This document shows, piece by piece, positions 566 through 33,332 of a stretch of DNA of 64,000 nucleotides (its first letter is position 1; the number at the start of each line of letters is the position of its first letter). The DNA is from a bacterium. GTDB taxonomy: Bacteria; J088; JAWLBW01. The stretch lies in NCBI GenBank assembly GCA_041690355.1, contig JAWLHK010000002.1:283082-347081 (forward strand). The letters are read 5' to 3'. Both the position numbers and the translations under genes were made by a program. The notes beneath the pieces were generated by a model that saw nothing but the letters and a program-made list of their open reading frames with translations, was not told where the DNA came from and ran no database searches.

Positions 566-745
566 AGTTACGAGTTACGAGTGACGAGTGAACGAGTGAC
601 GAACACCTTACCGTTCGCCTCGAGCTTACGGACGAAGGCAGAGCCGGAGTCGACAGCGAGAGGTTGCGCAAACTGACGATTGACGATTTGGCGGAACGCG
701 CCCGCTGGCCCCCGTCCCTTGCTTCCTTGGCGCTCGGCGCTTGTC
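566..745. repeat. mosaic intergenic element, reverse orientation (TCACTCG array 566-605, AATCGTC units 675-688, AGCGCCG module 725-745)
   Basis: Tandem 7-bp units cgagtta/cgagtga, gacgatt x2 and ccttggcgctcggcgcttg; the reverse complement of 601-688 aligns with 10563-10650 with few mismatches. Confidence 0.8.
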
Positions 746-811
746 TTGTCCCCCGGCGGCGTTTGACGCTTGGCCGGCGTTCAGTGAGCAGCGGGTTTCT
801 CGTCTCGTGCG

Positions 812-835
812 TTGAAAGGGGGGGCATGGTAGAAT
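812..835 (+). promoter_or_regulatory. putative typA promoter with extended -10 (TGgTAGAAT) and weak TTGAAA -35
   Basis: ttgaaa at 812-817, TG at 827-828, tagaat at 830-835; the 11-mer catggtagaat is repeated upstream of rimP. Confidence 0.35.
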
Positions 836-887
836 ATTAGACTTTACATTCGTCTCCGGAGGAGAACCGGAGGACAGGAAAGATTTT

Positions 888-2717
888 ATGAGTTCGCGTC
901 GAGAAGACATCCGCAATATCGCCATCATCGCCCACGTCGACCACGGCAAGACCACGCTCGTCGACAAAATGCTGCAGCAGGCGGGCACGTTCCGCGCCAA
1001 CCAGAAGGTCGTCGACCGGGTCATGGACTCGAACGACCTCGAGCGAGAGCGCGGCATTACGATTCTGGCCAAGAACACGTCCATCCGCTACGGCGATTTC
1101 AAGATCAACATCTGCGATACGCCTGGCCACGCCGACTTCGGCGGGCAGGTCGAGCGCGTGCTGACGATGGTCGACGGCGTCATTCTTCTGGTCGATGCGG
1201 CCGAGGGTCCGCTGCCGCAGACGAAGTTCGTGCTGCGCAAGAGCCTCGAGCTCAATCTTCATCCCATCGTCGTCATCAACAAGATCGACCGCCCCGATGC
1301 GCGCGCCCATGAAGTGCTCGACATGGTTTTCGAGCTGTTTCTCGAGCTCGGCGCCAACGATAAGCAGCTCGATTTCACGACGCTGTACGCCTCGGCCAAG
1401 AACGGCTTTGCCCAGTACGAGCTGGAGCAGCCGAACGCCGATCTCGAACCGCTGTTCAAGACGATCATCGACAAGGTACCGCCGCCGACGGTCGAAGAGG
1501 GCACCCTGCAGATGCAGGTGAACTCAATCGACTACTCAGACTTTCTGGGTCGTCTCGCCATCGGCCGCATCCGCCGCGGCAGCATCCGGCTCAACGAGAC
1601 GGTTTCGCTGTGCAAGCGCGACGGCACCGTCGAACGCGGCAAGATTACCAAGGTCTACGTCTACGAAGGGCTGAAGCAGGATGAAGTCGCCGAGGCCAAG
1701 GCCGGTGACATCGTCGCCGTCGCCGGGTTCGAAGACGTCGATCTGGGCGAGACGATTGCCGATCGGGAGAACCCCGAGGCCCTGTCGAGCCTGTCGGTCG
1801 ACGAGCCGACCATCGCCATGTACTGGATGGTCAACGACTCGCCGTTCGCCGGCCGCGAGGGCAAGTTCGTGACGAGCCGCCAGATTCGCGACCGCCTCTA
1901 CCGCGAAGCCAAGATGGATCCGGCGCTGCGCGTGGAAGATACCGACAAGCCCGATACGATCAAGGTTTCGGGCCGCGGCGAACTGCACCTGACGATCCTC
2001 ATCGAAAAGATGCGCCGTGAAGGGTACGAATTCGCCGTTTCGCGTCCTGAGGTCATTCTGAAGCGCATTGACGGCCAGCTCTGCGAACCGATCGAAACGC
2101 TGTACATCGAGACCCCCGACGACTGCGTCGGCGCCGTCATCGAGCGCCTCGGACGCCGCAAGGCCGACATGTCGAACATGGAGCCGACGGGCAACGGATC
2201 GACGCGCATCACCTTCTCGGTGCCGGCGCGCGGCCTCATCGGGTTCCGCACCGAATTCCTCACCGTCACCCGCGGCATGGGAATCATGAACCACCAGTTC
2301 GAAGGCTACGGCTCGCACAAGGGCGACATCCCGTCGCGCGTGCGCGGCGTGCTGATCAGCATGGATCAGACCGATTCCGTGGCGTATGCGCTGTTCAACC
2401 TCCAGGAGCGCGGCGATCTGTTCGTCGGCCCCGGCGTGGAACTGTACGAAGGAATGATCGTCGGCGAACACAGCCGCGAGAACGACCTCGTCATCAATGC
2501 CGGCAAGGGCAAGAAGCTTACGAACATGCGCGCGAGCGGCAGTGACGAGAACATCATTCTCACGCCCCCGCGCCGGCTGAGCCTCGAGCAGATGGTCGAG
2601 TTCATCAACGACGACGAACTCGTCGAGGTGACGCCCGAGAGCCTGCGCCTGCGCAAGAAGCTGCTCTCGGCCAACGACCGCAAGCGCGCCTCGCGCAGCG
2701 CAGAAGCCGTCGCCTGA
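888..2717 (+). CDS. typA: translational GTPase TypA/BipA
   Basis: 609 aa; AHVDHGKT G1 motif, [13 protein letters not shown]; full-length TypA/BipA architecture; RBS-like ggaggag upstream. Confidence 0.95.
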
Positions 2718-31090: not shown

Positions 31091-31350
31091 GAGCCTGCCC
31101 TTTGCGGAAAGTTGGCGGAAATCCGGAAGGGCCATTATACATGGATACCCGCCCTTAATCAACCGTGCGTTTAATTGGCGGTACGCTCCAATTCAAACAA
31201 GGTTTTCACGGAGGGGAGCTGCTGTCGGGCCGCTGGGGGGAGGCCCGTGGGGGACGAGGCATCCGCGTATCGTTAAAACGCTGTTTTGAGCCATTTTCCG
31301 CATTGACGCCGCCCAGGGGTTCCGGGTAGGGTTTGACAGGAGTTTCTACC

Positions 31351-33078
31351 ATGTCCCGTTTTTCCCTTCGGTTCCTCGCCGCGGCCGCTCTCTTAAGCGG
31401 ATGCGCTTCACAGACCTCTGTCGCCCGCCTCCGGGCCCTCCCGCCCCGCGAGAGCATCGCGGAGCACTGCCGCGAGCAGATCGGCGCGCCCCGTATCGAA
31501 CGCGTCGGCGAGCGCATCTACGCGGCGCTTGGCTACGATCTGGCCAACACGATCCTCATCCGCACCGACGACGGCAACGTCATCGTCGATCCCGGCATGA
31601 GCCCGGCCCGGGCCGCGCGCGTCCGCGAAGATCTGCTGGCCGCGGCGCCGGGACCCGTGCGCGCCGTCGTCTACACGCACAGCCATATCGATCACATCGG
31701 CGGTGCCAGCGTGTGGGTCGAGGAGGGGACCGAGATCTGGGCGACCGACGCCTTTCTGCCGCACATGCTGAAGCAGTACGGCCGGTTTCAGCGCGCCGAG
31801 GCCATGCGCGGGCAGGGGCAGTTCGGCCGTCACGTTCCCCTCGAAGCGCTCCCGTGCTCGGCCATCGGGCGGCGGGTCGACATCGACGCCGCTCTCGAGT
31901 CGGGGGTACGCGTGCCGACCCGCACCTTCTCGGGGCAGGCGTCGTTCACGATCGGCGGCGTTCGCTTCGAGCTTCGCGAGGCGCACGGCGAGACGCACGA
32001 TCAGCTCTTCGTCTGGCTTCCGGGCGAGCGGATCCTGCTGCCCGGCGACAACTTCTATCACGCTTTTCCGAACCTCTACACGATTCGCGGCACCAGCGCA
32101 CGGCCCGTCGACGTGTGGATCGAAAGCCTCGACGCCATGCGCCGCCTCGCGCCCATGGCCCTGGTACCCTCGCACACGCGGCCGGTGGTCGGCGGTGACT
32201 TGGTGGCCGGGGCGCTTCGCGATTACCGTGACGGCATCCAGTGGCTGCGCGACGACGTCGTGCGCCGGGCCAACGCGGGGATGACCGTCGAGGAGATCGT
32301 TTCTTCGGTCGGCCTTCCCCCGCATCTTGCGCAACGCCCCTTTCTCCAGGAACTCTACGGGCAGGTCGACTGGTCGGCGCGCGCCATCTACGACAACGAA
32401 CTCGGCTGGTTCGACGGCGACCCGCTGGCGCTTTATCCGCTCGCGGCCACGGAGACGGCGCGGCGCACGGTGCAGCTCATGGGCGGGAGCGAGAAGGTGC
32501 TCGCCGCTGCCCGCGAAGCGCGCGCGCAGGGAGATCCGCGTTGGGCGGCTCACCTGCTCGGCCTGCTGCGCGACGCCCGCGCAGGCGATCCCGAGATCGT
32601 CCGCGAAGAGCTCGCGCGGAGCCTCGAGGCCGTGGCCGCCGGCGTGGGCAATACGAACGGGCGCGCCTATCTGTTGGAATCGTCGGTCGCGCTCACGGAA
32701 ACCAGGAGACCGCTCCCGCGTGTGCAGCTCGATGATGCGCTGCTGGAGGGAATTCCCGTCAAGGTATTCATGACGCTCATGAGCGGCCGCCTGATCCCCG
32801 AACGGTCGGCGGCCGTCCACGAATCGGTCGTGTTCCGCTTCGGCGAGCAGCAGTTCGTGCTTACCATCCGTCGCGGCGTGGCTGAGCTGGTGGAAGGGGA
32901 ACCCCTCCCCGGCACCCCCGAGCCGCTGGCGGTCGTGCATACCGATCCGTTGACGTGGAAGCGGCTGGCGCTGCAGATCGACAGCCCGGCCGCGGCCCTG
33001 CTGTCGGGGCGGCTGCGCATCGAGGGGAGCCAGACGGGCTTTCTGGCCTTCACGAACCGCTTCGACCGCGAACTCTGA
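31351..33078 (+). CDS. metallo-beta-lactamase-fold alkyl/aryl sulfatase-like lipoprotein
   Basis: Lipobox LLSGC; MBL motif THSHIDHIGG; C-terminal SCP2-like region; aggag RBS before ATG 31351. Confidence 0.8.
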   Translation: MSRFSLRFLAAAALLSGCASQTSVARLRALPPRESIAEHCREQIGAPRIERVGERIYAALGYDLANTILIRTDDGNVIVDPGMSPARAARVREDLLAAAPGPVRAVVYTHSHIDHIGGASVWVEEGTEIWATDAFLPHMLKQYGRFQRAEAMRGQGQFGRHVPLEALPCSAIGRRVDIDAALESGVRVPTRTFSGQASFTIGGVRFELREAHGETHDQLFVWLPGERILLPGDNFYHAFPNLYTIRGTSARPVDVWIESLDAMRRLAPMALVPSHTRPVVGGDLVAGALRDYRDGIQWLRDDVVRRANAGMTVEEIVSSVGLPPHLAQRPFLQELYGQVDWSARAIYDNELGWFDGDPLALYPLAATETARRTVQLMGGSEKVLAAAREARAQGDPRWAAHLLGLLRDARAGDPEIVREELARSLEAVAAGVGNTNGRAYLLESSVALTETRRPLPRVQLDDALLEGIPVKVFMTLMSGRLIPERSAAVHESVVFRFGEQQFVLTIRRGVAELVEGEPLPGTPEPLAVVHTDPLTWKRLALQIDSPAAALLSGRLRIEGSQTGFLAFTNRFDREL

Positions 33079-33081
33079 AAA

Positions 33082-33332
33082 CAGTCTTCAGGCGTCAGTC
33101 TCCGGTCCTCAGTCGGAATTCGTCACTCGACACTCGATACCCGTCACTGAGTATTCGTCACTCGTCACTCGTCACTCACACAAAGCGCCAAGCGCTGAGC
33201 ACCGAGTGCTGACGAGGCAAGGGCGAAGTGTTTCAAGGTTCTTGCCGGAAACGCGTCACTCGTCACTCGTAACTGAACAAGGTTCTTGCCGCTCAATCGT
33301 CAATCGTCAATCGTAAATCGTCAATCGACGAG
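33082..33332. repeat. largest mosaic intergenic element (CAGTCTT-family 33082-33114, TCACTCG array 33117-33180, AGCGC module 33184-33217, caaggttcttgcc 33234-33246 and 33278-33290, TCACTCG 33251-33275, AATCGTC array 33293-33332)
   Basis: All module types in one spacer, beginning 4 bp after the sulfatase stop and ending next to a TATAAT box upstream of rseP. Confidence 0.8.

Follow-up and report, generated by a model that had tools for sequence, protein, structure and literature searches.

Seven intergenic spacers in the first 34 kb of the window, as we call the whole 64-kb stretch analysed here (positions 283,082 to 347,081 of contig JAWLHK010000002.1, assembly GCA_041690355.1), carry tandem arrays of 7-bp units that are joined with non-tandem linkers into composite blocks. 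It appears, with somewhat better than even confidence, that these blocks form a lineage-specific family of dispersed non-coding mosaic repeats, belonging to the class of the short tandemly repeated repetitive (STRR) sequences or heptanucleotide long simple sequence repeats (LSSR), and that they were born by slippage and copied as blocks. The family is a new example of an already described and unexplained class of heptamer repeats, not a new kind of element. Its blocks sit only at gene boundaries, either directly past stop codons or upstream of promoter-like -10 boxes.

Intergenic heptamer arrays were described in 1990, 2007 and 2015. The window offers a clean and compact example from a deep, uncultured lineage, with 17 arrays, polar blocks and array-free syntenic relatives. 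Handles on the problem are provided by whole-block copying with retained variant order, by an inverted array pair that would replace a terminator hairpin, and by units that are over-represented in unrelated contigs. Should the arrays be only slippage debris, their value would be mainly practical, for annotation and as a warning in assembly and binning.

Period, placement and confinement of the arrays

Tandem Repeats Finder detected 7-bp arrays at all seven spacers named in a preliminary description of the window (here R1 to R7), and nothing of similar quality elsewhere in it. The arrays lie at 566-602 and 674-688 in R1, at 2718-2748 and 2795-2827 in R2, at 4494-4534, 4550-4579 and 4611-4641 in R3, at 10497-10523, 10564-10578 and 10649-10672 in R4, at 15575-15610 and 15615-15647 in R5, at 27651-27679 and 27694-27726 (the latter with a period of 14) in R6, and at 33120-33177, 33254-33274 and 33293-33327 in R7. 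A strict self-match scan, requiring at least 18 matches in 21, returned eight clusters at a lag of 7, none at lags 5, 6 or 8-11 and none in 20 shuffles, and a looser scan gave 11 clusters at lag 7 with none at lags 6 and 8. Every lag-7 cluster lies before 33.4 kb, within the seven spacers, and 7 bp is the only enriched period. The arrays are 2-8 units long, internally variable, and all fall in gaps between open reading frames (ORFs) with a high, coding-type GC content at third codon positions. Tandem Repeats Finder, the self-match scans and the raw sequence thus bear out the intergenic 7-bp arrays that had been proposed.

The preliminary description also stated that the arrays often start a few bp past a stop codon. 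This holds at three sites (2718 after BipA, 33082, and 27726 on the minus strand after MacB), whereas R1, R4 and R5 are located upstream of gene starts. The absence of arrays between 34 and 64 kb, likewise proposed, was recovered with weak significance: 7 of 17 gaps of at least 100 bp hold arrays in the first part versus 0 of 10 in the second (hypergeometric p ~0.02, by hand arithmetic on crude gene calls and tested post hoc). A simple partial explanation is that the second half consists of tightly packed conserved operons, the synteny comparison placing there the dense nusA-infB-rbfA-truB-rpsO-pnp series and a che cluster. A role of the modules as all-frame stops was considered, since each has TGA on one strand and three units stop all frames; it was rejected, as TGA does not always fall on the strand that is sense for the upstream gene (R7 fails).

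The units read as listed in the preliminary description, but in a common register they collapse into about three related families, namely TCAMTCG, GATTCYT/GACTCTT/CAGTCTT and GAGCGCC. Unit A (TCACTCG, variant TAACTCG) and unit B (TCAATCG, variant TAAATTG) are then one base apart. Units C (GATTCCT/GATTCTT), F (GACTCTT) and G are related T/C-rich units, G being a 14-bp unit in which CAGTCTT alternates with CAGGCGK. The G+C-rich unit D (GAGCGCC/GAGCGCT) is an outlier, with a 5/7 match to the reverse complement of A (GAGTGAC). In the sense orientation each A, B, C, F and G unit contains one G and at least two C. A universal core consisting of AATC/GATT and three free positions was also tried and dismissed as compositional: of 144 other units 15% contain AATC, where ~5.5% would be expected, and ATTG, ATTC, AAAT and AATA are enriched likewise.

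Composite blocks and their copying between spacers

The modules do recur, as had been claimed, and the seven regions are copies of composite blocks, R1 being inverted relative to R4. Alignments revealed a shared polarity: a D array leads, the purine-rich spacer (GAGGAA...AAGGGCAAAG) and then E (GTTTCAAGGTTCTTGCC or a variant of it) come next, and A and/or B arrays close the block. R1 is the reverse complement of R4, with a mean column identity of 82% over 245 alignment columns and 87% over 124 bp between 573-696 and 10556-10672, a segment that includes a non-repetitive core of ~65 nt. The likeness runs from the first D unit to the last A unit, and the outer flanks are unrelated. Positions 15511-15647 of R5 and 33187-33325 of R7 agree at 79% over 141 bp, while 27707-27728 of R6 matches 33101-33080 of R7 at 95%. 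The blocks measure 100-250 bp. The order of variants within the A array is the same in R1, R4 and R5 (TCACTCG two or three times, then TAACTCG twice), and the third A array of R7 shows TCACTCG twice followed by one degenerate unit, TAACTGA. Because block copies are 79-90% alike and the variant order of the A arrays is kept, the blocks appear to have been copied whole, the arrays not having arisen separately. The 3'-end modules are also placed regularly, G arrays beginning 0-3 nt after a stop codon at both of their sites (33082; 27726 on the minus strand) and C arrays following a short hairpin downstream of a stop at both of theirs (4494; 27651). No terminal inverted repeats were found at the R1/R4 ends, where the left (CAAGCGCCGAG...) and right (...CTCGTAACTT) termini share only a GAGNNNC skeleton, nor was a target-site duplication, the flanks of R1/R4 differing directly outside the block with no direct repeat.

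R1 (564-745, minus strand) lies between the divergent genes for RuvX (start ~518/544, minus) and BipA (start 888) and consists of a D array (729-742), a hairpin-like spacer, two B units (675-688), the ~65-nt core (603-672) and an A array (564-602). Its counterpart R4 (10495-10672, plus) separates the divergent GH92 gene (minus; promoter TGGTAGAAT at 10448-10440) from an FHA-domain gene (plus), and is composed of a D array (10496-10523), a spacer, GGTAYTTTCC twice (10541-10563), two B units (10564-10577), the ~65-nt core (10579-10645) and an A array (10647-10672). The 10-bp direct repeat GGTAYTTTCC, present 2.4 times at 10541-10563, occupies the slot held by the E hairpin in R3, R5 and R7, and an 8-codon mini-ORF (ATG at 10537) overlaps it. 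In R5 (15511-15651, plus), the start of which lies 11 bp upstream of the -35 element in a promoter-like site of tRNA-Val (minus), a D array (15515-15534) and the purine-rich spacer are followed by the E hairpin (CAAGGTTCTTGCC, 15557-15569), an A array (15578-15612) and a B array (15617-15651). R7 (33082-33332, plus) comprises a G array (33082-33116) beginning 3 nt past a stop, three A arrays (33118-33143, 33153-33178 and 33256-33274), a D array (33183-33210), two E copies (33234-33246 and 33278-33290) and a B array (33293-33329); a TATAAT box (~33341) and the RseP ATG (33358) come after it.

The remaining regions are R2, R3 and R6. R2 (2718-2830, plus) begins at the base directly after the BipA stop codon and is a pair of inverted B arrays, TTGACGA at 2718-2748 and AATCGTC at 2796-2830, around a 46-nt centre. 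R3 (4494-4710, plus) contains a C array (4494-4535), a D array (4549-4576), the purine-rich spacer, an E-like hairpin (4590-4616), a B array (4611-4641), a TTGACG/TAT(A)TT promoter-like site (4651-4679) and an F array (4680-4707), and ends 9 nt upstream of the ATG at 4719. R6 (27620-27726) lies between convergent genes and uses both strands. A palindrome occupies 27620-27654 and a plus-strand C array 27651-27679, and 27726-27694 hold a G-type 14-bp array that reads along the minus strand and directly follows the MacB stop codon (27727-27729). The palindrome, perfect over 35 bp (GAATGAGCGTTCGGGCC/GGGCCCGAACGCTCATTC) and with the start of the C array inside its 3' arm, probably terminates transcription in both directions. 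The reverse complement of the G module (27694-27726, 33082-33116) contains GCCGCCTGAA / GCCGGCTGAA, a 9/10 match to the Neisseria DNA uptake sequence GCCGTCTGAA that we presume to be coincidence.

Comparison with relatives

The window has a GC content of 65%. Apart from its own sequence, the best BipA homologues are 82, 80, 77 and 69% identical, the first being the nearest relative within the searched collections, and named homologues (~63-66% identity) are labelled 'bacterium', Ignavibacteriae, Bacteroidota and Acidobacteria. Polynucleotide phosphorylase (PNPase) homologues reach 76, 73 and 71%, the next ones (60-64%) belonging to Binatia, Thermodesulfobacteriota and Geobacter. By these identities the host is a deep, uncultured and non-cyanobacterial lineage.

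Loci of relatives with 69-82% BipA or 71-76% PNPase identity, amounting to 102 kb in total, keep the gene order (RuvX | BipA - FAD-dependent gene; rpsO-pnp-M16-dut-che) and have no period-7 clusters, versus 11 in the 64-kb window. BipA and the FAD-dependent gene are 145 bp apart in the window and 57 and 19 bp apart in two relatives, and two relatives in which this spacer is 156 and 115 bp have ordinary hairpins at the R2 position. The R2 hairpin stands exactly where the relatives L003 and L005 have hairpins. Between RuvX and BipA, the relatives L001 and L004 have spacers of 214 and 221 bp, as opposed to 344-370 bp here, and only the BipA promoter region of this spacer aligns. Furthermore, the junction of E and A yielded only two matches in the metagenomes of the Joint Genome Institute (JGI), both array-free and chance-like. 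Since the relatives keep synteny without arrays, and in view of the JGI scan, the family seems on the available data to be specific to this lineage and to have been inserted after the split from these relatives. The comparison of orthologous spacers, suggested in the preliminary description as a check, gave syntenic spacers that are array-free and in several cases shorter.

Promoters and folding

It had been suggested that the arrays could be stacked promoters, given that the reverse complement of B resembles a -35 hexamer. The reverse complement is indeed TTGACGA. A good -10 box at 16-18 bp, however, is missing from every array; TTGACG units of the arrays score at most 9/12 as promoters, with the poor -10 boxes GAAAAT and TAAATT, and the stacked-promoter reading is thus not supported. 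Where genes are arranged in tandem, TTGACGA reads on the antisense strand of the flanking genes. The promoters that can be recognised locally have an extended -10 motif, TGGTAGAAT (TGnTAnAAT), which is found at 827-835 (+), 10448-10440 (-), 12154-12146 (-), 22995-23003 (+), 35962-35970 (+), 44011-44019 (+) and 51577-51585 (+). It precedes BipA, GH92, H+-PPase, rpsO and other genes, and the same box is kept 5' of BipA in L004 and L001.

A/B arrays are the final modules before the -10-like boxes of RuvX, the FHA-domain gene and RseP, and in R1, R3, R4 and R7 they end 14-45 bp upstream of such boxes. TATAAT/TACAAT is present at ~527-532 (-), ~10716-10721 (+) and 33341-33346 (+), 7-9 nt before the starts of RuvX, the FHA-domain gene and RseP, respectively. 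Because these boxes stand only 7-9 nt before the start codons, their position suggests that genes directly downstream of A/B arrays may have leaderless mRNAs.

Folding was evaluated on single strands by z-scores against dinucleotide shuffles. The whole blocks of R4 (+1.72) and R3 (+1.91) fold clearly worse than shuffles, and R1 and R7 gave +0.62 and -0.88. In the predicted fold of R5 (z = -2.47), part of the D array and the purine-rich spacer pair with the A array; the predicted R1 and R4 folds do not pair D with A. The possibility that D and the reverse complement of A act as a terminal inverted repeat closing a block-wide hairpin was discarded, being unsupported by the folds of R1, R3, R4 and R7. 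Two regions do fold well. The R2 hairpin reaches -43.7 kcal/mol (z = -5.8) on the sense (plus) strand and -34.5 kcal/mol (z = -2.45) on the minus strand, and that of R6 has z-scores of -3.6 (plus) and -5.1 (minus). Module E forms a small hairpin of -5.5 to -12 kcal/mol in three of its six copies in single-sequence folds, and RNAalifold gave no consensus structure for the six E sequences. None of the seven regions matched an Rfam family at E <= 1.

Relation to known repeat systems

The arrays share with the STRR/heptanucleotide LSSR class head-to-tail 7-bp units beyond chance, a non-coding location in seven spacers within 34 kb, and absence from near relatives. Cyanobacterial STRR, to which the preliminary description had likened the arrays in their high-GC, non-cyanobacterial context, are indeed similar: they are short tandem 7-bp arrays of several unit families per genome in dispersed intergenic DNA, and tandem intergenic 7-mers of several families, mixed arrays and absence from relatives are all found here. 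Mazel and colleagues reportedly gave CCCCAGT, TTGGTCA and CAACAGT as STRR units in 1990. The window repeats are not STRR in the strict sense, their host being non-cyanobacterial with 65% GC and their units (TCAMTCG, ATTCCTG, GAGCGCC and CAGTCTT) differing from those reported for STRR1-3. They also differ in the fixed polar joining of arrays with non-tandem linkers, namely the E hairpin, the purine-rich spacer and the 65-nt core. STRR are known from Calothrix PCC 7601 (cited in PMC4692102).

Later accounts of Mrazek et al. (2007) describe heptanucleotides as the most frequent LSSR, sporadically distributed, enriched in intergenic DNA and lacking in near relatives, which agrees with the window, and name polymerase slippage as their proposed origin (via PMC4679880 and PMC4692102). 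As summarised in those accounts, however, LSSR are defined locus by locus, and multi-module blocks copied between loci fall outside that description. The TAACTGA sets of marine Beggiatoaceae, Cyanobacteria and Bacteroidetes (MacGregor, 2015; PMC4679880) come close as well. A set comprises from two to several units within a spacer, mixtures with other heptamers are frequent (seen in Microcystis, Gramella, Aequorivita and Elizabethkingia), the corresponding spacers of close relatives are shorter and repeat-free, and some sets adjoin start or stop codons (PMC4679880). The unit TAACTGA is two bases apart from the TAACTCG found here (the last two, GA versus CG). In the Beggiatoaceae genome, however, a single unit is dominant and lies just 5' of start codons in forward orientation, whereas the window has at least three families, with different ones at 3' ends and upstream of promoters. 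The GGGAATC / GGGGATT repeats of Xanthomonas and Nostoc (Rehm et al., 2015; PMC4692102) are also intergenic heptamers, some of them in inverted pairs able to form stem-loops, and their length varies between related strains. Unlike these G-rich, G-quadruplex-forming units, those of the window contain a single sense-strand G in every 7 nt, so that no G-quadruplex is possible.

A likeness to miniature inverted-repeat transposable elements (MITE), bacterial interspersed mosaic elements (BIME) and Correia elements, which had also been put forward, found no support: terminal inverted repeats and a recognisable target duplication are both lacking, and whole blocks fold no better than shuffles, contrary to the behaviour of REP, BIME, Correia or MITE elements. 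They resemble these elements and the repetitive extragenic palindromic (REP) sequences in being small, multi-copy, intergenic mosaics of few motifs, some copies (R2) being 3'-end hairpins. They differ in having no palindromic unit and, apart from R2 and the R6 palindrome, no excess folding. The stem-loops that characterise REP/BIME are not general here, since whole-block z-scores are not low and only R2 has inverted arrays.

Heptamer arrays in other genomes and viruses

Species-representative genomes were scanned with a degenerate three-unit B pattern. B-type arrays were found in at least 120 stretches from at least about 20 genomes of many unrelated phyla. Among the matches listed are metagenome-assembled genomes (MAGs) of Oscillospiraceae, Clostridia, Anaerolineae and Pyrinomonadaceae, Spirulina subsalsa FACHB-351, Bacteroidota, Verrucomicrobia, Planctomycetota, Geomesophilobacter and a candidate phyla radiation genome. 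The B-type arrays of these genomes stand among many other heptamer arrays, and in the matches listed each array-rich genome has its own recurring module order. The order is (GGATTTT)n-(GATTGAC)n-(CAATACG)n in the Anaerolineae MAG CALBEF01 (at least 42 loci) and GGGGAGC...-(TTGACAA)3-(TTATCAA)n in Spirulina. Dozens of spacers of CALBEF01 (L075-L116) hold 3-6 different heptamer arrays, including an ACTACTG array of up to ~170 bp, and inverted array pairs that, like R2, form hairpins are common there. In the Oscillospiraceae MAG CAKTOB01 (L052-L074, e.g. L066 716-830), (TTGACAA)n-TGGACAA-(TTGACAA)2 is followed by a conserved sequence of ~70 nt (ttattgg.gacggacgt.tccg.ttttgaaatacgttggttaaaaaatacaccaatcagcgaaaccgtaggg). 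This sequence is present at more than 20 loci and has no Rfam match, and it would represent an undescribed repeated element or small RNA.

Exact three-unit arrays were also counted in IMG/VR, where A, B, C and TTGACAA gave 17, 37, 58 and 32 stretches, while four composition-matched permutations gave 4, 4, 0 and 2. The window units are thus 4-18 times commoner, which suggests that unit choice is not random; the comparison is indicative and not proof, as it involves only four controls, two of them with palindromic tetramers that genomes may avoid. Many of the C-unit matches come from one Pseudomonas-like phage family. L153 (5729-5775) and about 40 similar IMG/VR contigs of 40-50 kb carry just one array, (CTGATTC)5-11, which varies in length and precedes a TTGACA...TAATGT promoter-like site by ~70 bp; this may represent natural unit-number variation. 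A link between these phages and the window was rejected, given that they have a single array upstream of a promoter and no mosaic.

Origin and possible role of the blocks

Under our preferred reading of a slippage-born family copied as blocks, slipped-strand replication of 7-bp units would create the arrays and alter their length, and multi-module blocks would spread between spacers by recombination, gene conversion or another copying process, not by a classical transposase. Arrays would be retained at places where lengths not divisible by 3 are harmless. Most copies are probably unstructured, G-poor spacer DNA or RNA that may shift promoter context and have no sequence-specific job. The inverted arrays of R2 would form a strong 3'-end hairpin in place of the conventional terminator hairpin of the relatives, and a role at transcript 3' ends is probable for R2 and for the units that combine a hairpin with a C array.

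Several points weigh against this reading. Independent slippage alone cannot give identical units and module order at several loci, and the copying step is one that we infer. The enrichment of A, B, C and TTGACAA over permutations in IMG/VR hints at selection or a sequence-specific mechanism and not at neutrality. Nearly all window arrays share the same polarity relative to the adjacent gene (about five of six informative cases agree, arrays in one block not being independent), which pure neutrality does not predict. The evidence base, moreover, is 64 kb of genome. A more far-reaching possibility, which we regard as unlikely and put forward tentatively, is that heptamer arrays use a vocabulary shared across phyla together with a syntax proper to each genome, implying a sporadically inherited factor that reads or copies heptads. 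The vocabulary refers to TCACTCG, AATCGTC/TTGACGA, ATTCCTG and TTGACAA arrays, 4-18 times over permutations in unrelated contigs of viruses and bacteria, and the syntax to the fixed module order in the window genome, the Anaerolineae and Oscillospiraceae MAGs and Spirulina. If true, the factor would be a protein binding one unit per 7 bp or a process of templated synthesis or repair, and it would explain array-filled genomes beside array-free relatives.

Among the alternatives, it is conceivable, although we doubt it, that the arrays are stacked DNA sites which a dimeric or oligomerising protein (ribbon-helix-helix, nucleoid-associated, or a sigma factor or helix-turn-helix protein reading TTGACR) coats cooperatively, thereby modulating promoters. 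The ribbon-helix-helix omega repressor reads 7-bp heptads, 5'-WATCACW-3' in the operators of plasmid pSM19035, which are plasmid sites of one known protein at three promoters. As in the window, these heptads are contiguous, direct or inverted, lie 5' of promoters and have the core AATC seen in unit B (AATCGTC); unlike them, the window repeats are chromosomal, belong to several unit families and also occur at 3' ends. A binding protein would account for the strict 7-bp register, the skeleton shared by several unit families, the A/B arrays 14-45 bp before -10-like boxes in R1, R3, R4 and R7, and the enrichment of units over permuted controls, and it could recognise TTGACGA, TTGACAA arrays being common in other phyla. 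Nostoc heptamer repeats are reported to have modest promoter effects, and a binding partner was postulated (preprint 10.1101/2022.06.06.494920). However, no candidate protein was found, the three or more dissimilar unit families within 34 kb would call for more than one reader or for one of very low specificity, TTGACGA units lack a -10 box at the correct spacing, local promoters have an extended -10 motif, and the arrays of R6 lie at 3' ends between convergent genes. Another explanation, which we find rather doubtful, is that the repeats act as RNA cis elements, in which unstructured C-rich, G-poor tracts with UC every 7 nt, transcribed in the sense orientation, load Rho (as rut sites) or a protein with a ~7-nt footprint (cold-shock domain, S1) and control termination, read-through or translation. 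It would agree with the one G and at least two C of the sense A, B, C, F and G units, with blocks that fold worse than shuffles (z = +1.7, +1.9), with the sense orientation of G and C arrays after stop codons at four of four sites, and with the greater stability of the R2 hairpin on the sense strand, partly through G-U pairs. S1, cold-shock proteins (Csp) or CsrA were proposed to bind TAACTGA arrays (MacGregor, 2015; PMC4679880). Against it, C/G ratios of 2 or more over 78 nt are frequent in the rest of the window and not specific to the arrays, the C-rich strand has no sense bias in other array-rich genomes (45 vs 40 in the Anaerolineae MAG, on crude gene calls), D arrays are G-rich, and R1, R4 and R5 are upstream of putative promoters, where transcription is uncertain.

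The dispersed copies of 100-250 bp, 79-90% identical with sharp homology boundaries, and the empty sites of the relatives could also point to non-autonomous transposable elements (MITE-like or REP/BIME-like) moved in trans by a transposase elsewhere in the genome, but this seems improbable. The loose likeness of D to the reverse complement of A (GAGCGCC vs GAGTGAC, 5/7) is a weak terminal inverted symmetry, while true terminal inverted repeats and target duplications are absent from the R1/R4 boundaries. The R1 and R4 folds have no D-A pairing and z-scores are zero or positive in R1, R3 and R4, although the R5 fold pairs part of D with A. Module content, furthermore, varies between copies, unlike in MITE families, and no Pfam transposase domain was found in the 19 window ORFs scanned, which is weak evidence as these are about one third of the ORFs in 64 kb. 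That the arrays are an assembly or adapter artefact is hardly credible. Short repeats can be mis-assembled and the assembly is that of an uncultured organism, but the arrays have 2-8 variable units and sit within unique sequence, flanked by intact conserved genes, on a contig of 376 kb, and like arrays exist in the isolates Spirulina subsalsa FACHB-351, Geomesophilobacter sediminis Red875 and Paraflavisolibacter caeni LB-8.

Flanking genes and other features

The genes around the arrays are ordinary chromosomal genes. On the minus strand RuvX (104-~518/544) is followed across R1 by BipA/TypA (888-2717, plus), and R2 separates the latter from the gene for the FAD-dependent protein (2863-4473). 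A fatty-acid hydroxylase (4719-5594) begins at the ATG after R3, GH92 occupies 8140-~10423 on the minus strand, and the FHA-domain protein is encoded 3' of R4 on the plus strand. H+-PPase is encoded on the minus strand, and Dfp is among the genes flanking array spacers. MacB (27727-30306, minus) adjoins R6, and R7 lies between an alkyl-sulfatase-like protein (31333-33078) and RseP (33358-34692).

The tRNA-Val gene (15376-15450, minus) was the only feature of the 64 kb to pass Rfam gathering thresholds. A sub-threshold match to the 3' terminator part of CsrC (E = 0.0014; 24 bits versus a gathering threshold of 61) is located at 21903-21939 and most likely represents just a terminator hairpin.

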